64,000 bases of DNA, taken from NCBI GenBank assembly GCA_965223425.1, contig OZ245003.1, forward strand, positions 736,001 to 800,000, read 5' to 3'. Shown here in pieces: positions 46,274-58,548 of this stretch (positions are counted from its first letter, which is position 1; each line of letters begins with the position of its first letter). Origin of the DNA: Nitrosopumilus sp. (lineage in GTDB: Archaea > Thermoproteota > Nitrososphaeria > Nitrososphaerales > Nitrosopumilaceae). The notes under the pieces are model-generated. The model was not told the DNA's origin. It saw nothing but the letters and a program-made list of their open reading frames with translations, and ran no database searches. Position numbers and translations under genes: made by a program.

Positions 46274-47857
46274 TTGCTAACTGTAAATAAATTTCAAAAT
46301 AACGTATCCCTAATGAGAACAAAAATAACATCACTGCTGATGATTGCAACCTTGGTTGCTATCGCACCGCCATTAAACGCAAATGCTGAATCAATGCCCG
46401 AAACACCTCAAGCAAATTTAGACTATAACCTAGTTGGAGCTGGTGCAACGTTTCCATTCCCATTAATTGATTTGTGGAGAGTTGAATACAACAAAATTTA
46501 CGACAACGTAAATCTGAACTACCAATCAATTGGAAGTGGCGGTGGAATTAAGCAACACATTGAAAGAACCGTAAATTTTGCAGCCTCAGATAAACCAATG
46601 AGTGAAGCCGAAATAGAGCTAGCTTCTGGAACACTACACATTCCTGAATCAGTTGGAGGTGTAGTTTTAGTGTACAACGTTCCTGAAGTTCCAAACAAGG
46701 GTCTTAAGCTAACTGCTGATGTCGTAGCTGGAATCTTTTTGGGAGATATTACAAAATGGAACGATCCTGCCATAGTTGCAGAAAACCCAAGATTGAACCT
46801 GCCTGACAAAGACATAGTTACTGCACACAGATCAGACGGCTCTGGAACCACTTTCATATTCACAGATTATCTATCTGTAGTCAGCCCTACGTGGGATGAA
46901 CAGATAGGTAAAGGAAAATCTATTCCATGGCCTTCTGGTCTTGCTGCTGCAGGAAATGAAGGTGTTGCCGGCATCGTAAAGTCTACTGAATATGCAATTG
47001 GATACATTGAACTTGCTTATGCATTCCAAACAGGAATGAGTTATGCATATATTCAAAACGCTGAAAAATCTGCATTCATTGAACCATCATTGGACAGCAT
47101 TTCTGCTGCATCTAGTGGTGTTGCTGACACTTTACCTGCAGCTGAAGACAGCTGGGTTGGAGTGTCACTAGTCAATGCACCAGGTTCTGATTCCTACCCA
47201 ATTGCTAGTTTCACATACCTACTTGTGTATGATGATCTAAAACCGGTAACAAAAAGCAAAGAACAAGCAAAAGCCATAATCCATCTAATTAATTGGATGA
47301 TTACTGATGGTCAGGAATTCTCACCAAGTTTGCTATATGTCCCACTTGCCGATAAGGTAACAAAACTTGGACAAGCAGGATTAAAACAAGTAACATATGG
47401 CGGTGAAGTTCTTTGGGGTGCAAAAGCATCTGCAGATTCAGGAAATATGCCAGAGATGACACAGCAAACTGTAAATGAAGAAAACGGAGGTTGCCTAATT
47501 GCAACTGCAACATATGGTTCTGAAATGGCGCCACAAGTTCAGTTGTTAAGAGAAATTCGTGATAACCAGCTAATGAATACCGCATTTGGCATGTCATTTA
47601 TGGCCGGATTCAATCAGTTGTACTATTCATTCTCGCCACACATTGCTGACATGGAAAGAGAAAGTCCAGCGTTCAAGGAAATGGTAAAGATCGGAATAAC
47701 CCCGTTGCTATCATCCTTGTCCATCATGGAATATGCCGAGTCAGACTCTGAAGTGCTAGGATATGGCATCGGTGCAATTCTGATGAATCTTGGAATGTAC
47801 TTTGCAGCACCGGCTATGTTGTTTTACAGAATAGCAAAGAGAATAAGGCATTCTTGA
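46274..47857 (+). CDS. pstS: Phosphate-binding protein with CFI-box-type C-terminus
   Basis: 'GAGATFP', 'GSGGG' and 'HRSDGSGTT'; 'GGCLIATATYGS'. Confidence 0.95.
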   Translation: MLTVNKFQNNVSLMRTKITSLLMIATLVAIAPPLNANAESMPETPQANLDYNLVGAGATFPFPLIDLWRVEYNKIYDNVNLNYQSIGSGGGIKQHIERTVNFAASDKPMSEAEIELASGTLHIPESVGGVVLVYNVPEVPNKGLKLTADVVAGIFLGDITKWNDPAIVAENPRLNLPDKDIVTAHRSDGSGTTFIFTDYLSVVSPTWDEQIGKGKSIPWPSGLAAAGNEGVAGIVKSTEYAIGYIELAYAFQTGMSYAYIQNAEKSAFIEPSLDSISAASSGVADTLPAAEDSWVGVSLVNAPGSDSYPIASFTYLLVYDDLKPVTKSKEQAKAIIHLINWMITDGQEFSPSLLYVPLADKVTKLGQAGLKQVTYGGEVLWGAKASADSGNMPEMTQQTVNEENGGCLIATATYGSEMAPQVQLLREIRDNQLMNTAFGMSFMAGFNQLYYSFSPHIADMERESPAFKEMVKIGITPLLSSLSIMEYAESDSEVLGYGIGAILMNLGMYFAAPAMLFYRIAKRIRHS

Positions 47858-47886
47858 TCTACGCCATTTTTTATTTATTTTTGAGA

Positions 47887-49134
47887 TCAACTAGTGGTTC
47901 TGATCAAATCTCGGTTCTGTGAAGTTATCGGGAGTTGACCCCTATAACTCGACTTTGACATATCGACTATTCGGACTACCAATGGTGTGCTGGGTTCCGT
48001 CATCGCCGGCTCAAAAGTGCCGGACTGCGCTTCACATATGTCATCTCTACTACCCCTAAACCTGGGGGGCAGCTTGCGTGATATGTTGTTCATGGCAGCG
48101 ACAATATCCCTGTCCATAAACAAACCGCAATTATTACACGACAGTTTACGATGTTGTTGTTGCATGTCCTCTTGGAGTCTCTTTCCGCATTGCGGACACT
48201 GCGTGCTCGTGTTTCTTGGGTCTACTGTCTCGACTGGAGGTAGCCCGACCCATTGGGCTTTGTATTCTATTTGGCGTTGCAGCTCGTAGAATTGCCACCC
48301 GTTCAATCTGCGCCTGTACTTGTTGCCTTGACTGTTTCCTTTTCGGTACAATTTTCTTATTCCTTTCAGGTTTTCCATGACGATTGCAGTCTTGTTTTTG
48401 ACTGCGTTGTCTACTATATCCTTTGAGATTCTGTGGATGTACTGCCTTGCTCTGTCAGTCAGTCTTCTCTGTCTTTCCTTGTAGAACTGATTTTTCTTCC
48501 TGCGGTCATTTCTGTGGAAGCCTGCCCTGGCGTGTATTGTGTTCTCCTTTATGGATAACAGCTTGTTTGTCTTGTAGACTGTCACCCCTTCCTCGTTCCC
48601 ACACGTCACATTTCTTAGGTTTCTGTCTATTCCGACTTTCTTGGTGCACTCTATCTCTTGTACTTTTTTTGAAACACAAAGACTGATGTTGAGGGCAGTC
48701 AGTGAAAACGAGCGCACCGTCAGGGCGGGATCAGACAGGATTTTTTGGGTGTGATCGTTGAGTAAAATGTTGATTGGGTTATGTTTCTTGTATGGGATTG
48801 TTAGTAGTGCACCGTTGTGTTTTATGCCGTAACAGTTTGTCATAAAGGGATTTTTGACTATTGGATCTCTTATTCTGACACCTCGTTTGACTGATTGTTT
48901 TCTGTTTGATAATATGCCTGCAGCTTTTGATATTGCACATATCTTGTATGTTGATAAAATGTCATAGTTACGCAATTCGTGATAACATAACATGGACAGC
49001 CTCTTCATATTGTGAGTGTCTTCTTTCAACCCTATCTTGATGCAATGATTGGCCATCTTTGTGAATGTAGCCGCCATATCCATTAGGTCAGAGTTCGGCG
49101 CATATTTCTGTGATATTGGCTTTATCGCCTTCAG
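47887..49134 (-). CDS. tnpB: TnpB RNA-guided nuclease (start uncertain)
   Basis: RuvC 'GIDRN', 'MENL' and 'DRD'; 'WQFYELQRQIEYKA'; CPQC/CNNC zinc finger. Confidence 0.92.
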   Translation of the reverse strand: MKAIKPISQKYAPNSDLMDMAATFTKMANHCIKIGLKEDTHNMKRLSMLCYHELRNYDILSTYKICAISKAAGILSNRKQSVKRGVRIRDPIVKNPFMTNCYGIKHNGALLTIPYKKHNPINILLNDHTQKILSDPALTVRSFSLTALNISLCVSKKVQEIECTKKVGIDRNLRNVTCGNEEGVTVYKTNKLLSIKENTIHARAGFHRNDRRKKNQFYKERQRRLTDRARQYIHRISKDIVDNAVKNKTAIVMENLKGIRKLYRKGNSQGNKYRRRLNGWQFYELQRQIEYKAQWVGLPPVETVDPRNTSTQCPQCGKRLQEDMQQQHRKLSCNNCGLFMDRDIVAAMNNISRKLPPRFRGSRDDICEAQSGTFEPAMTEPSTPLVVRIVDMSKSSYRGQLPITSQNRDLIRTTS

Positions 49135-49203
49135 CGAATATCTTGCGGTTTGGAGGCTTATACATTTTGGGAATTGACATATAACCCCCGATAACTTCAC
49201 AGA

Positions 49204-49396
49204 CGTTATACGAAATCTTTTCTGTATCCTGTGATGTATCGTTACTGTTGGGCCTGAGAGTTGAATGGTTACTGTCATGTACAAGGGCGTTTCACAGACT
49301 AACTCAAAGTGAGCGGAAAACAAAATACCACACAGATGATGGTGAATGGGAGCATTCCGCAGAATCAGGCAATTTGATCAGAAAGGAGGTGATAAT
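49204..49396 (+). ncRNA. Candidate bridge/seek RNA region
   Basis: Long leader containing TTCACAGA (target match) and ATGGGAG (donor match). Confidence 0.5.
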
Positions 49397-50471
49397 ATGA
49401 TCAGCATAGGAATTGACGTTCACAAAAACAGGTGCGTTGCAACAGTAAAAAAAGATACCAGAAAAAAGCTGGAACAGTCAAGCTTTGAGAACACCACACG
49501 TGGAATAACGGGTTTTATCAGACACGTCAAAAAGACATACGGCAAAGACATGCAAGCAGTGTGCGAATCAACTGCCAACTACTGGATTAGACTGCATGAC
49601 ACACTGGAGGATAACGGCATTGATACTGTTCTTGCACACCCTGCAAAGACCAAGATAATAGCACAGGCAAAACTCAAAAACGACAAGCTCGATTCAGACG
49701 TATTGGCAGACCTGCTAAGATCTGACATGGTGTACGAGTCATTTGTACCAGAAAAATACTATCGGGACCTGCGCAGTCTGGTAAGAACAAGACTGAATCG
49801 CGTACACAGTGTCTCAAAACACAAAAACATGATTTATGCAATACTTGCAAAATACGACTACACCCAACCGACAATAAAGACATTCTCACAGAAAGGAATC
49901 AGATGGCTGCATGAAATCAGTCTGACAGAAGTTGACAGGATGGCAATGGACGCATATCTTGAAAACATTGAGATGAATCAAAAACAGATTGACACATTTG
50001 AGACAAAGATTGCCGCAATTAGCAACGAGGATGAAAGGGCAAGACTAGTCATGACAATGCCTGGAATAAGCTATGTCACGGCACTGACAATAATATCCGA
50101 GATAGTTGACATTAACAGATTTGCAACAGCAGAGAAACTCGTCTCATATGCGGGACTTGCACCATCGCACAGGGACAGCGGAGAGACGCAAAAAGGAGGC
50201 GGCGGAATAACAAAACGTGGTTCTGCATGGCTGCGCAATGCAGGTGGAGGCTGCAAACACCACGATACGATTTGATCCAAGGATGGAATCATTTTATTCA
50301 AGAATCGCAAAGAGAAGAAGAAAACAAAAGGCAAGAATAGCAGCTGCAAGGCAGATGATGCTTGAGATAATCTGGCACATGCTAACAAACATGGAGGAAT
50401 ACCGCACACAGAATCACGAGTTGACGCAAAGAAAGTATAAGAAGATGCAAGACAAATCAGAAACATCCTGA
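49397..50471 (+). pseudogene. IS110 recombinase, frameshifted at ~50240
   Basis: 'IGIDVHK', 'CESTA', 'KNDKLD' and 'SYAGLAP..DSG'. Confidence 0.9.
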
Positions 50472-50611
50472 TTCAGCAAAGCACACTGAGAATGGCCCGC
50501 AGTAGGATAAGGGACGATTTCGTATGGGAGAACCCAAATCTCTATAGAACTATATTCTTCGCATAAAATATGATGATATCCTAGATAACTCCATTTTTAC
50601 GTTCAACAAAT

Positions 50612-51589
50612 GTGGGACATGTAAAGTTCAAACAAAAAAAGCCGAAAAGACGTTCAATTTCTGATAAAATCTTCAAAGTTGGCGCAACTGTAGCAGGCGT
50701 TTACGTTTTAGTGATGATTGTATTGTTAGCCTTTCAATTACTCTCTGAATCATATCCTGTTTGGGAAGAAGAAGGCTTGGGATTCATCTCCGGTACTGAC
50801 TGGAATGCAGTGGAAGGACGTGAGTCTTTTGGTGCTTTGCCTTATATTTTGGGAACGCTAGTTACTGCGGCTCTGGCAATGGTGATAGGCGTTCCGCTAA
50901 GTCTTGGCATTGCAATGTTTATCTCAGATGCTCCTGCAAAGATTGGCGGCCCGTTAGGATTTCTAGTTGAACTTTTAGCTGCGGTTCCAAGCGTAATTTA
51001 TGGACTTTGGGGTCTTTTTGTTTTTAGAATTTATTTTAAGGATTGGATTGAGGTTCCACTTCACAACGCGTTTGGTGATTCTATTTGGTTGTTTTCTGGC
51101 ACTCCTTTTGGTTTAGACATTATCACCGCAAGTGTCATTTTAGCTATAATGATCATTCCGACAGTTTCAGCAGTATCTCGTGAAATAATGAAGGCAGTTC
51201 CTCAACAACAAAAAGAAGCTGCATACATGTTGGGTGCAACAAAGTGGGAGATGTTCAAACTCGCGGTATTTCCATATTCTAAAACCGGTTTGATTGGTGC
51301 GTCAATTCTTGGATTGGGCAGAGCTGTTGGCGAAACTATGGCCGTAACAATGTTGATTGGAAATGCTACGGGTCTTTCAGCAATTCCATCCTCCTTATTC
51401 AAACCAAGTCAAACCATGTCTAGTATTATTGCAAATGAGTTTGTTGAAGCATCTCCTGCATCGTTACATCTTCCTGCATTGATTGCTGTTGCGTTGGTCT
51501 TGCTACTCATTGCAATTGCAATCAATGTTGTAGCTCACATTTTAGTAACTAGAATGCTCAAGGTAAAGGAGGGTGCTATTAACAATTGA
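50612..51589 (+). CDS. pstC: Phosphate ABC permease
   Basis: 'PSVIYGLWG' and 'GRAVGETMA'. Confidence 0.95.
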   Translation: MGHVKFKQKKPKRRSISDKIFKVGATVAGVYVLVMIVLLAFQLLSESYPVWEEEGLGFISGTDWNAVEGRESFGALPYILGTLVTAALAMVIGVPLSLGIAMFISDAPAKIGGPLGFLVELLAAVPSVIYGLWGLFVFRIYFKDWIEVPLHNAFGDSIWLFSGTPFGLDIITASVILAIMIIPTVSAVSREIMKAVPQQQKEAAYMLGATKWEMFKLAVFPYSKTGLIGASILGLGRAVGETMAVTMLIGNATGLSAIPSSLFKPSQTMSSIIANEFVEASPASLHLPALIAVALVLLLIAIAINVVAHILVTRMLKVKEGAINN

Positions 51590-56865: not shown

Positions 56866-57068
56866 GTCTACAGGTTCTACATAGATTTACCTGATCTAAC
56901 AGCTAAGCGAAATGTAAACAGAATATTCATTTTGTTTTGTTGTTAAACACAATTTGAGTCACATTCCATTGTTCTATTCCTATTTTTTGTCCAATTTTTA
57001 GTACATTTCGCTTAGCGGTTCTGTGAAGTTATAGGCACCTGAAAATATGAATTTTCTCTGAATTGAAA

Positions 57069-57965
57069 TCATGCATGCTGATTCAATGAGGCGTTTTGTA
57101 TGATGGTTTTCCACTTGTTAGAACCATCCACTAGTATTCCTGCCATCTCTGCTGGAGTCTTCTTTTCAATACCGCCATGCTTTTTTGAGAAATTATAGAA
57201 TGTCTGGAATCCGTCAAACAACTGGGCTTCTTTAAACATTGGTCTTACATTTTCAGTACCTTTGGTATCTGCTACAAACTGGGTAATCATGAATCTGGTC
57301 TCATGGTCAAGCATGGAGTATTGTAGTTTCATATTGCCCTTAATTTTCATAAAGATTTCATCAGTACGCCAAGTTTCTGATACTCTTGGAACTATGCCTT
57401 TGACATAATCTGCTACCGTTTTAGAGTATTTTTCAATCCAGCCATAGACTGCTCTGTATGATACCTTGATTTCCTCCTGCTCAAAACAGTCTGCAATATC
57501 TCTAACTGACATTCCTGAAAAATACATCTGTAATGCTCTGGTGATCACGGTATTACTGTAACGCATTTTTTCAAATCCAAAATTTGCTGTAAATCCCCTT
57601 TTACAGTCATTGCACTTGAATTTTTGAAGACTGCCTGATTTGTTTTTCTTGATTCCTTTTTTGATAATATTACCTGAATCACAGAACTTGCACACCTTGA
57701 CTAGTGATCCCTCAATTATGCGGAATGTCTGTTCTTGCCCCTCATTGTTTCTGATTAGCTCCAAAACTGTCTTGATGTGCTTGCAGTCTGATTTTCTTTT
57801 GGTGTGATCCGGGCAATCACAAATTAATCCATTGCTTGTCTTTGAGACAATATAATGAATCTGTGGTATGCTTTGAGATCTTACGCTAAATCTTTCTGGA
57901 CTGAACTGCACTGCGCAGTTTGGTAACTCCATCATTTGTGTTGCTCTTTGGGTTCGTGTATTCAT
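57069..57965 (-). pseudogene. SWIM/Zn-ribbon IS6-like DDE transposase with internal deletion
   Basis: 'CDCPDH..CKH', 'CKFC..CNDC', 'WRTDE' and 'YNF..H..TPAE'; the second D/E region is missing; TIR at 57017-57032. Confidence 0.82.
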
Positions 57966-58363: not shown

Positions 58364-58548
58364 ATAAAATGACAAATCAAACTCCAGCTAAGCGAAATGT
58401 ACCTCAAATCTGACACTAGATCAGCGGTTTGAACCTGCACATGAGAAGCGATTTCCTTAATCATAGTACATTTCGCTTAGCTGTCTAAAGACCGTTTCCT
58501 TTAGTCTTTGATGCTCGTAGGATTGGTGATGATGTCATCTAATCTTGA

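Follow-up and report, generated by a model that had tools for sequence, protein, structure and literature searches.

Between pstS and pstC of a Nitrosopumilus genome we found a tnpB gene lying inside what we read, with a probability of around 0.7, as a non-autonomous IS6-like DDE transposon that has tnpB and its omega-RNA as sole cargo, and whose insertions next to a TAM would be homed or retained by predicted TnpB cutting. The copy analyzed lies in a stretch of 64,000 nucleotides (hereafter the window), to which all coordinates refer unless a contig or another genome is given.

Once a nested IS110-family element is removed, positions 47913-50534 make up an element of 1,294 bp with a single ORF and GGTTCTGT... 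inverted ends, in agreement with the ~1.29 kb and the lone tnpB gene given in a preliminary description of this DNA. As also described there, the element is located between pstS (46274-47857) and pstC (50612-51589) and is bordered by an exact duplication of the octamer CAAATCTC, at 47905-47912 and, on the tnpB 5' side, at 50535-50542. The ends had been taken as a perfect 20-bp inverted repeat; both copies were located in the window, but the repeat is 25 bp long in intact copies of the family. At the tnpB 3' side, the 20-mer GGTTCTGTGAAGTTATCGGG occupies 47913-47932 (plus strand) and the 25-bp family repeat 47913..47937 (minus strand), while the copy at the 5' side is split into its inner 17 nt (49187..49203, minus strand; CCCGATAACTTCACAGA) and its outermost 3 nt (50532..50534; ACC, i.e., GGT on the minus strand). 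Three matches to the 20-mer with no more than three mismatches were found within the window, where 0.02 are expected by chance. A related end, GGTTCTGTGAAGTTATAGGC (57017-57036, minus strand), forms part of a feature at 57017..57965 that also includes an internally deleted remnant of a zinc-finger/IS6-like transposase (57069-57965, minus strand, 298 aa) and whose first 30 nt recur at the ends of a tnpB subfamily located in other parts of the genome.

The IS110-family element (49204..50531, plus strand, 1,328 bp; Pfam PF01548 and PF02371; NCBIfam IS110 family RNA-guided transposase, 200 bits) is inserted between ...ACAGA and ACC of the inverted repeat of the tnpB element, with an uncertainty of 2 nt (GA) at the junction. 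A frameshift divides its DEDD transposase into ORFs 49346-50275 and 50217-50471, and contigs of two public runs carry a 2-nt insertion at 50242. A second full IS110 copy was detected in another IS6-type end, inserted at the equivalent position, which makes this a case of an IS110-family element targeting the end of another transposon. Since its 5' end is split in this way and its tnpB stop codon is mutated, the window copy is probably immobile. The closest relatives of the pstS-pstC site were those of genomes G005 (82% identity over the 3' part of pstS) and G018 (75%), in both of which pstS and pstC are separated by a 340-aa PhoU-like gene and no alignment of the intergenic DNA to the window site was obtained. 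Among contigs of four public runs over 47400-51000, none joins 47912 to 50543; they break at the element ends, as repeats would give, and hence are uninformative on an empty allele. Contigs from RNA libraries cover 47951-49118, one of them passing 47913 into a different flank, and say nothing on transcription or RNA ends.

The tnpB ORF, as it stands in the window, spans 47887..49203 (minus strand). Its identification as tnpB was upheld, with a correction at the 3' end: the usual stop codon, located in the loop of the hairpin described below and TAA in other copies, is mutated to CAA at 47935-47937, and the frame reads on from the last normal sense codon (47938-47940) to a TGA at 47887-47889. 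The start position aligned to homologues, near 49134, is CTG in the window's subfamily, where the candidate starts are a GTG inside the repeat and an internal ATG (49081-49083). The protein matched Pfam PF07282 with 72 bits (cut-off 26; 3e-20) and NCBIfam NF040570 guided_TnpB with 115 bits (cut-off 100), and the solved structures that it matched were those of Cas12f and TnpB. The RuvC D-E-D triad (D194 in GIDRN, E278 in MENL and D366 in MDRD) and the C-terminal CxxC...CxxC zinc ribbon, both noticed previously, were invariant in an alignment of 11 proteins. In this genome, tblastn with the window TnpB gave 23 matches, several of which contain stop codons or are fragmentary; together with the mutated stop codon and split end of the window copy, this might indicate domesticated or decaying genes without mobile-element function, e.g., guide-RNA-directed regulators. 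We consider this highly implausible, given the invariant catalytic residues, the large number of nearly identical copies whose ends are intact and whose duplications are fresh, and the presence/absence polymorphism between genomes.

Over the 3' end of the gene, and reaching the end of the element, lies a structured RNA, as is typical of an omega-RNA. Its scaffold, which overlaps the 3' end of the tnpB ORF, was assigned to 47948..48078 (minus strand) by covariance model R1 (148 bits; G000:C1:783948-784078(-)). The scaffold consensus comprises 30 pairs, 16 of them backed by compensatory changes, and pairing was intact in 98% of cells; none of 500 shuffles was as high, and slid controls paired in 24-40% of cells. 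The model matched 17 places in this genome, all of them tnpB elements or their derivatives. A search of Rfam 15 yielded no matching omega-RNA family but two sub-threshold chance matches, to the CPEB3 ribozyme (25.8 bits, cut-off 35) and to UCA1. The hairpin previously seen to overlap the TIR at the tnpB 3' end was located at approximately 47922..47951 (minus strand), where an upstream complement base-pairs with the inner half of the repeat. This adapter hairpin is kept across 33 distinct tails of different end subfamilies folded with ViennaRNA, with matching, compensating changes on both arms. Immediately ahead of the guide, the final 9-11 nt of the 3' repeat (..TTCACAGAACC) are expected to remain unpaired as single-stranded RNA. 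Since the scaffold, followed by the terminal hairpin built from the repeat, overlaps the tnpB 3' end, the guide should equal the octamer plus flank; its template was thus predicted at 47893..47912 (minus strand), consisting of the duplication copy at 47905-47912 and ~12 nt of flank and reading GAGATTTGATCAGAACCACT, from the omega-RNA architecture and a TAM-like motif. A guide read across the repeat into the duplicated octamer and flank, as we infer, has strong indirect support in the one-sided motif beside the duplication, described below. In mini-derivatives of 344-497 bp, precisely the scaffold and the two element ends are left.

Multiple copies of the family exist in this genome, and members were also detected in further Nitrosopumilus genomes, other genera of the Nitrososphaeria and metagenomes. 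The expectation that further copies would carry TIRs and variable 8-bp duplications was borne out: 10 of the 14 paired-end elements in this genome showed a 7/8 or 8/8 duplication, with a different octamer in each, and in two more of the 14 the flanks had been swapped through an inversion between copies (C1:1325308 with 1451399), compatible with homologous recombination between them. Paired GGTTCTGT-type ends were detected at 33 of 35 related loci of other genomes, 19 of the 35 with an 8/8 duplication, at 25 of 50 loci of distant relatives with 45-70% identity (Nitrosotenuis, Nitrosotalea and Nitrososphaera MAGs) and at 30 of 80 metagenome loci. For five family members, unoccupied alleles were identified in other genomes and, as had been anticipated, they contain a single octamer between contiguous flanks.

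With their 25-bp inverted ends and 8-bp duplications, which the empty sites confirm as true duplications, these elements do not conform to the IS200/IS605 (IS1341) group, and none of the family copies has IS605-like ends. In line with this, no PF01797 match (Y1 TnpA) was found in this 99.99%-complete genome by a search that was positive in 6 of 14 control genomes. The inverted ends and duplications are equally at odds with IS607, whose serine recombinase TnpA is absent: PF00239 (Resolvase) had no match in this genome, while the same search was positive in 12 of the 14 controls. Instead, the ends start with GG... and are accompanied by an 8-bp duplication, as in IS6/IS26. The preliminary description had itself named a case that would undo its proposal, namely an IS605 tnpB that simply entered a pre-existing IS6 MITE. 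In this reading, an IS200/IS605-type (IS1341-like) tnpB element and an IS6-like MITE were nested by chance, with the parts functionally unlinked. Such MITEs without tnpB but with related ends do exist, e.g., the 141-bp copies at C1:1088904 and 1892824, and a nested origin may conceivably lie far back in time. Nonetheless, there is no room for IS605-type ends, as the element is taken up over its whole length by the ORF and omega-RNA and normal copies have only 24 nt between stop codon and element end; the repeat-built terminal hairpin co-varies with the repeat; those short relatives with internal sequence in common have arisen from it by deletion and retain the omega-RNA; and the association persists across genera down to ~45% protein identity. 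Considering also the absence of Y1 and serine TnpA from this genome, chance nesting appears very improbable.

For these non-autonomous IS6-like elements, a candidate partner was identified. In genome G001, an element of 1,970 bp, the ends of which match those of two tnpB elements at 19/20 positions, encodes a transposase with a zinc finger and an IS6-like DDE domain. The partner protein (P0122) scored 42 bits against PF13610 DDE_Tnp_IS240 (cut-off 27), and its best NCBIfam model was the IS6 family transposase, at 102.8 bits and thus under the cut-off of 125. The Nitrosopumilus genome under study contains ORFs of the IS240-type DDE class; it yielded no intact transposase sharing the exact inner repeat (..CGGGAGTTA) of the subfamily to which the window copy belongs. 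Among 69 loci examined for autonomous elements, recognisable ends plus an 8/8 duplication within 1.2-kb flanks were detected in four full elements and in one 1,098-bp derivative, which makes for a small control.

The evidence for an involvement of TnpB in the fate of these insertions comes from the bases immediately 5' of the octamer on the tnpB 5' side. All 51 independent elements with a 7/8-or-better duplication have T at -2 and G or A at -1, and 48 of the 51 have T/A-T-G/A at the same three bases (35/36 in the first set, also restricted to duplications of 7/8 or better, plus the non-overlapping 6/7 of distant relatives and 7/8 of metagenomes), against a background frequency of 0.08-0.09 (binomial P = 2e-47). 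In the window, this trinucleotide is ATA on the tnpB strand (50543..50545, minus strand; TAT on the plus strand). At the mirrored position, the motif was present in only 3/36 and 0/9 cases and, when ends were counted individually, in 30 of 32 tnpB 5' ends and 6 of 54 tnpB 3' ends. The two sides differ beyond the three bases, with an A/T content of ~85% in the 5' flank and ~70% in the 3' flank. We suggest that this one-sided motif represents the TAM of TnpB, enriched by nuclease-driven homing or retention.

Alternatively, T-(G/A) might reflect a target-site preference of the IS6-like transposase or of a target-capture complex, TnpB being a passenger or, in a softer variant, its TAM having co-evolved to a weak transposase bias. 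This could account for the one-sided motif in 7 of 12 tnpB-less elements with a 7/8-or-better duplication, where ~23% is expected; in those of this genome that carry the motif, BLAST and the covariance model detected no omega-RNA, and the motif may be there by chance. It could also account for the ends in genome G018, which has neither tnpB nor omega-RNA in the 1.54 of 1.94 Mb scanned (all but the stretch 1.2-1.6 Mb): here, 19 of 76 ends carry the motif (25%, with a local mean of 12%), the highest count of 38 offsets. However, 19 is unexceptional in a genome in which the other offsets average 9.3 and reach up to 17 of 76, and it differs from the 30/32 at tnpB 5' ends (Fisher P = 1e-11). Further, the motif was found on none of the eight sides of the four autonomous elements with 8/8 duplications, in contrast with four out of four tnpB elements of the same end type (G001 724290 and 838811, L261 and L281), and at least eight end subfamilies, presumably with different transposases, share it only when tnpB or omega-RNA is present. 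A symmetric, two-ended DDE complex would hardly be expected to yield a motif that is strictly one-sided and follows the orientation of the cargo. The transposase may have a weak intrinsic site bias, but a passenger role for TnpB seems unlikely to us. Since sites of this kind seem to be favored little or not at all by the transposase itself, selection offers the best explanation for the near-total enrichment.

A host promoter or initiator required for tnpB or omega-RNA expression would likewise be one-sided if only insertions behind it persisted, and it would suit both the window's subfamily, in which the reading frame is already open at the element's first base and contains a GTG at nt 7-9, and the unusually AT-rich 5' flank at -12 to -6 from the duplication. 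Nevertheless, the subfamilies place the tnpB start anywhere from 0 to 194 nt from the 5' end, and in each of them the invariant bases directly adjoin the duplication, so that the motif cannot keep a fixed position relative to the transcription start. ATA and TTA, moreover, are not start codons, the triplet does not share the reading frame of the ORF and T/A-T-G/A shows no peak ~26 nt upstream of the motif. We therefore regard a promoter function as improbable.

Under the favored reading, a selectively retained TnpB target site, three steps can be envisaged. Firstly, a transposase with a zinc finger and a DDE_Tnp_IS240-type domain, encoded elsewhere, would bind the 25-bp ends and insert the element with an 8-bp duplication; the ends, duplications and empty sites are observed, and the enzyme is inferred. 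Secondly, the 3' part of the tnpB transcript would fold into the omega-RNA scaffold, with the hairpin from the inner half of the 3' repeat adapting the scaffold to the transposon end, followed by ~10 unpaired nt (..ACAGAACC) before the transcript enters the flank. Here, the structure derives from covariation and the RNA ends are predicted. A transcript running past the hairpin into the flank would have as its guide the duplicated octamer plus the next ~8-12 nt. Thirdly, on an element-free chromosome, the guide sequence would be directly preceded by the other flank, T-(G/A) and usually (T/A)-T-(G/A), acting as TAM; TnpB may then cut unoccupied alleles, and repair from the occupied copy would install the element, resulting in homing or retention. 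As read from the sequence, an occupied site would be safe, because the octamer on the TAM side is followed by the repeat and matches the guide over 8 nt only, and that on the guide side is preceded by ..GAACC rather than by the motif. Only insertions that land behind a TAM in the right orientation would be driven and kept. A point against this reading is that IS26-type elements are thought to move copy-in without excision (PMC6807381, in the part drawn on here); if this applied here, TnpB would need no "restorative" role and any drive would have to act on naive alleles.

TnpBs that come with inverted ends and a DDE transposase, together with solo TnpBs mobilised in trans, have been published as branches DDE-1 to DDE-6 (Altae-Tran et al. 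2023, PNAS, PMC10691335), and the part of a 2026 review drawn on here names their transposases as ISL2, IS630 and IS1031 (PMC13565253). The elements described here share with that class, as far as those portions of PMC10691335 go, a tnpB between inverted repeats, solo copies with the ends of transposase-bearing elements and thus moved in trans, a tnpB 3' end near the transposon end (24 nt here and "within 250 bp" there) and an omega-RNA "adapter hairpin" that takes in the transposon end. They differ in their IS6-like (DDE_Tnp_IS240) partner with an N-terminal zinc finger, a type not named in the same portions, where neither a one-sided motif at a variable 8-bp duplication nor omega-RNA-only mini-elements are described. 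Among the papers listed, our literature searches retrieved no report of TnpB on IS6-type elements or in ammonia-oxidising archaea, papers with both TnpB and IS6 concerning, by title, other matters; the supplementary tables of PMC10691335 lay outside their scope and may include an IS6-type or Nitrososphaeria branch. The general DDE-TnpB class is therefore already published, while for the IS6-like/TnpB pairing, as for the one-sided T-(G/A) site signature, we found no report.

TnpB of ISDra2 reportedly supports homing. With this system and with the tnpB-only elements of the IS200/IS605 type (IS1341 group), the present family has in common the protein family, the RuvC and zinc-finger layout and an omega-RNA overlapping the gene 3' end, as well as, by prediction, a guide from the flank beyond the element end and a TAM on the other flank, so that only the empty site is targeted. 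It is distinguished by its 25-bp inverted ends, by an 8-bp duplication that forms the first 8 nt of the predicted guide and by a predicted TAM that the transposase does not dictate. According to the sections of PMC13565253 used here, IS1341-group elements lack inverted ends and duplications, have subterminal hairpins and insert 3' of a fixed target of 4-5 nt, and in the IS605 type the TAM abuts the left end and equals the TnpA target. Fanzors, the eukaryotic TnpB homologues, reside inside DDE transposons with inverted ends and duplications (PMC13565253; PMC3627910, both in part), and are therefore similar in placing an RNA-guided nuclease on TIR/TSD transposons with a guide that starts beyond the inverted repeat; there, a fixed 5' duplication, e.g., TA, is read as part of the TAM (PMC13565253), whereas here, in a prokaryotic host, the duplication is variable and predicted to be read by the guide, the TAM lying one step further out. 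With IS6/IS26 and the archaeal "IS6", as presented in the sections of PMC6807381 considered, the family shares ends beginning GG(T/C)TCTG, the 8-bp duplication and a single DDE transposase with an IS240-type catalytic domain. Its autonomous elements, however, are larger (1.9-2.1 kb vs. ~0.8 kb) and carry the extra N-terminal zinc finger, their transposase scores 103 bits and hence below the NCBIfam IS6 cut-off of 125, and the place of archaeal members in the IS6 family has itself been doubted (Harmer and Hall 2019, PMC6807381).

Several predictions are directly testable, among them the TAM, (T/A)T(G/A), the guide boundary at the first base after ..CAGAACC, and the activity of a compact nuclease of ~400 aa that comes with an RNA model and from a mesophilic archaeal source; the family also supplies natural omega-RNA-only mini-elements.

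The same 2026 review, in the part drawn on here, holds that DDE transposons should gain little from TnpB (PMC13565253). The present family addresses the question of what TnpB contributes to transposons beyond the IS605 and IS607 groups, as transposase and nuclease are uncoupled in it. Because nearly all surviving tnpB and omega-RNA copies carry the motif even though the transposase apparently does not choose it, the genomes would record the effect of the nuclease on the fate of the transposon. At roughly even odds, TnpB may thus provide a DDE transposon with a natural, RNA-guided gene drive, the transposase itself being indifferent to the TAM: each insertion would write its own guide, the roughly one in ten that happen to be correctly oriented next to (T/A)T(G/A) would home into naive alleles and be essentially the sole copies to persist and become the consensus state in Nitrososphaeria populations, and omega-RNA-only mini-elements would parasitise the nuclease in trans.

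The inverted ends, the exact 8-bp duplication, the single tnpB gene and the location between pstS and pstC, as claimed in the preliminary description, were all borne out in the window sequence. The left end, GGTTCTGTGAAGTTATCGGG (47913-47932), recurs as an inverted copy in two pieces (49187-49203 and 50532-50534) that are split by a nested IS110-family element of 1,328 bp (49204-50531). The octamer CAAATCTC is present on both sides of the element (47905-47912 and 50535-50542), and the insertion is flanked by pstS (46274-47857) and pstC (50612-51589). With the IS110 removed, the single gene of the 1,294-bp element is located on the minus strand and encodes TnpB, which matched Pfam PF07282 (3e-20) and NCBIfam guided_TnpB (115 bits vs. 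a cut-off of 100); the solved structures that it matched were Cas12f and TnpB. The RuvC D, E and D residues and the zinc ribbon, also described previously, were present in the window TnpB and invariant across 11 aligned homologues. In the window copy, the usual TAA stop is CAA and the ORF consequently extends to 47887. The interruption of its 5' end by the IS110 and the loss of the stop codon make it probable that this copy can no longer act as a transposon; the nuclease residues and the omega-RNA remain intact.

Two full-length copies of the IS110-family element exist in this genome, the one in the window and another at G000:C1:2061323-2062650. Each is inserted at the same point (between ...ACAGA and ACC) and in the same orientation within a terminal repeat belonging to an IS6-type element, which suggests that this repeat is the target of the IS110. 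The transposase of the window copy is frameshifted, and contigs from two public runs have a 2-nt insertion in it at window 50242. Also close to the insertion, a solitary GGTTCTG (47896-47902) is situated 3 nt ahead of the target octamer (GTGGTTCTGATCAAATCTC); it is like the GGTTCTGATCA... end at C1:258598 and could be what is left of an earlier element's end. The C-terminal part of PstS (47486-47857, approximately the last 110 residues from near GGCLIATATYGSEMAPQVQLLREIRDN) is a widely reused C-terminal domain, with very many matches elsewhere in this genome and further matches in 23 of 24 same-genus relatives.

Judged by sequence comparison, the tnpB element is a mobile family. In the window's genome (2.64 Mb, two contigs), 23 tblastn matches to the window TnpB were found, and the 16-nt end motif occurred 51 times with no more than two mismatches. 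Ends were paired in 14 elements, nine of which had a perfect 8-bp duplication and one a 7/8 duplication, with a different octamer each time among these ten, while two had no duplication. Intact copies measure 1,291 bp, with 25-bp inverted repeats, a reading frame that is open from base 1 and a TAA that sits in the terminal hairpin loop, 24 nt short of the element end. In the window's subfamily (element nt 1-126, e.g., minus strand of the comparison locus L033:2665-2790), CTG occupies the homologues' start position, and a GTG is found at nt 7-9 within the repeat, where two copies have GCG. The genome G001 (a Nitrosopumilus MAG) contains about 35 copies in several subfamilies, whose inner repeat sequences differ. 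That other copies share the end type with variable duplications, as had been anticipated, was observed in 35 related loci, 33 of them with paired ends, 19 with an 8/8 duplication and 2 more with 7/8. Like ends were also detected in 25 of 50 loci from MAGs of Nitrosotenuis, Nitrosotalea and Nitrososphaera, where protein identity is 45-70%, and in 30 of 80 loci on metagenome contigs. In most of the remaining loci, the ..AGAACC 3' end, at the minimum, is preserved. The other two of the 14 paired-end elements in the window's genome (C1:1325308-1326598 and C1:1451399-1452689) face opposite ways and have flanking octamers that are swapped as reverse complements, indicating an approximately 125-kb chromosomal inversion through recombination between the two copies.

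The expectation of a single octamer in unoccupied alleles held for five other family members, where the flanks are contiguous in the allele of another genome: three copies of the window's genome vs. G018 (also Nitrosopumilus), one G001 copy vs. G018 and one G001 copy vs. the window's genome. For instance, G018 reads ..GCGCCTA TTATAGAT TCAATGC.., and the window's genome ..GCGCCTA TTATAGAT (element) TTATAGAT TCAATGC... At the pstS-pstC site itself, the nearest relatives found, G005 and G018 (L222 and L223), have a PhoU-like gene in between, and the spacer is unalignable. This gene encodes 340 aa on the opposite strand, with a PhoU-like C-terminal region, and is absent from that position in the window's genome (47858-47912 and 50543-50611). 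In four public runs, no contig was found with the flanks of the window site joined; contigs break at the element ends, which is usual for repeats.

Elements with duplications of at least 7/8 were then oriented by tnpB and the flank directly 5' of the duplication was read. Among 36 elements from the window's genome, G001 and six other loci, T occurred at -2 in 36/36 and G or A at -1 in 36/36 (G 19, A 17), with T 25, A 10 and C 1 at -3, so that T/A-T-G/A was present in 35/36. Further elements, each counted once, gave 7/7, 7/7 and 6/7 for T at -2, G/A at -1 and the full motif, respectively, in genomes, and 8/8, 8/8 and 7/8 in metagenomes, which brings the totals to 51/51, 51/51 and 48/51. The genome-wide frequency of this trinucleotide set is 0.08-0.09 (binomial P = 2e-47). 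In the window copy, the trinucleotide is ATA (50545-50543). The motif is one-sided: at its mirror-image position in the 3' flank it was found in 3/36 of the first set and 0/9 metagenomic elements, and, counted per end, it was present at 21/22 (G001) and 9/10 (window's genome) tnpB 5' ends and at 5/37 and 1/17 3' ends, respectively. A promoter in the host flank is an unlikely source of this signal, since the motif is fixed at the edge of the duplication even though the distance to the tnpB start varies from 0 to 194 nt between subfamilies. In empty alleles, the motif directly precedes the octamer and 3' flank, which is the geometry of a TAM followed by its target, with a guide running from the first base past the element.

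We also considered whether the transposase may have a weak intrinsic bias toward the motif. Four autonomous elements with 8/8 duplications had it on 0/8 sides. G018 is rich in the same end type, and no tnpB or omega-RNA was found in the 1.54 Mb of it scanned; its ends had the motif in 19/76 cases, vs. at most 17/76 at other offsets of the same flanks (mean 9.3, SD 3.9). As the main cause of the motif in this family, the insertion machinery is not supported by these controls. The transposase may still have a weak bias, given that this count was the highest of 38 offsets and that, in a set of 12 tnpB-less elements flanked by a duplication, 7 had the motif on one side. Four elements with IS6-type ends and duplications that lack both tnpB and omega-RNA (G000:C1:1088904-1089044, 1860917-1862710 and 1473259-1473958; G001:883991-884841) had it on exactly one side each, which may reflect chance or such a bias. 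A TAM may, in turn, have evolved to match a weak transposase preference.

With regard to the enzyme responsible, neither a Y1 TnpA nor a serine recombinase was matched in the window's genome, and eight matches to IS240-type DDE transposases were obtained there, two of them within intact-looking ORFs. The ends of a 1,970-bp partner element in G001, which has an 8/8 duplication, match those of two tnpB elements at 19/20 positions. The protein encoded by this partner (378 aa) contains a CxCx(n)CxH zinc-finger motif (identified by eye) and scored 42 bits with Pfam DDE_Tnp_IS240 (cut-off 27). On the basis of these shared ends, this DDE protein and the lack of a Y1 or serine enzyme, the tnpB element was called IS6-like and non-autonomous. 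The name stops short of full IS6 family membership, since the top NCBIfam model, IS6 family transposase, gave 103 bits, below its cut-off of 125, and the archaeal placement is disputed, Harmer and Hall expressing doubt, in the relevant part of their article, that archaeal 'IS6' elements group with IS26 (PMC6807381). The window also contains an internally deleted copy of such an IS6-like transposase (57069-57965), whose end at 57017 has 30 nt in common with a tnpB subfamily that is represented at other loci of this genome. This remnant is bracketed by a sequence of about 16 nt (AGCTAAGCGAAATGTA and its complement) occurring four times as two inverted pairs (56902-56917, 57001-57016, 58387-58403 and 58465-58481), which may belong to another small repeat element entered by the IS or represent the ends of a different transposon.

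The final 230 nt from 23 diverse elements yielded a consensus structure with 30 pairs, 16 of them with compensatory changes, and 98% of cells were paired; none of 500 shuffles reached as high a value, and slid controls gave 24-40%. The covariance model of this omega-RNA region found 17 places in the window's genome, all in tnpB elements or derivatives and including window 47948-48078, and no matching omega-RNA family was found in Rfam. The structure reaches the element end, where the hairpin overlapping the TIR at the tnpB 3' end, already noted in the preliminary description, was recovered: 3' of the scaffold, a stem forms between the inner half of the 3' inverted repeat and a complementary stretch upstream, both arms vary together across end subfamilies, and the final 9-11 nt (..ACAGAACC) are unpaired. 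This arrangement is the 'adapter hairpin' across the end of the transposon whose existence Altae-Tran et al. inferred in their section on DDE-linked TnpBs (PMC10691335). Mini-elements of 344-497 bp (G000:C1:1199933-1200276; G001:143852-144348, 803351-803738 and 870887-871264; and others) keep the 5' end, the scaffold (approximately the last 270 nt of tnpB) and the 3' end, and nothing else. Most retain the T/A-T-G/A flank motif; they resemble omega-RNA-only MITEs with the potential to draw on TnpB in trans.

In that same section, Altae-Tran et al. 2023 reported TnpBs that lie within inverted repeats and are associated with DDE transposases, among them solo copies mobilised in trans, and a 2026 review, where it deals with such pairings, names ISL2, IS630 and IS1031 as partners and describes them as rare in prokaryotes (PMC13565253). 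Our literature search found no account of TnpB paired with an IS6-like element, of the one-sided site signature or of omega-RNA-only derivatives. Here, a DDE-type insertion with an 8-bp duplication is combined with a nuclease whose guide would be the octamer plus flank, and the flank motif would be its TAM. The occupied site would be spared in two ways: at the TAM-side octamer the guide would match only 8 nt because the repeat comes next, and ..GAACC precedes the guide-side octamer. Unoccupied alleles would be cut by TnpB and the element copied in by repair, and such a TnpB-driven filter would account for nearly all surviving copies sitting behind a TAM.
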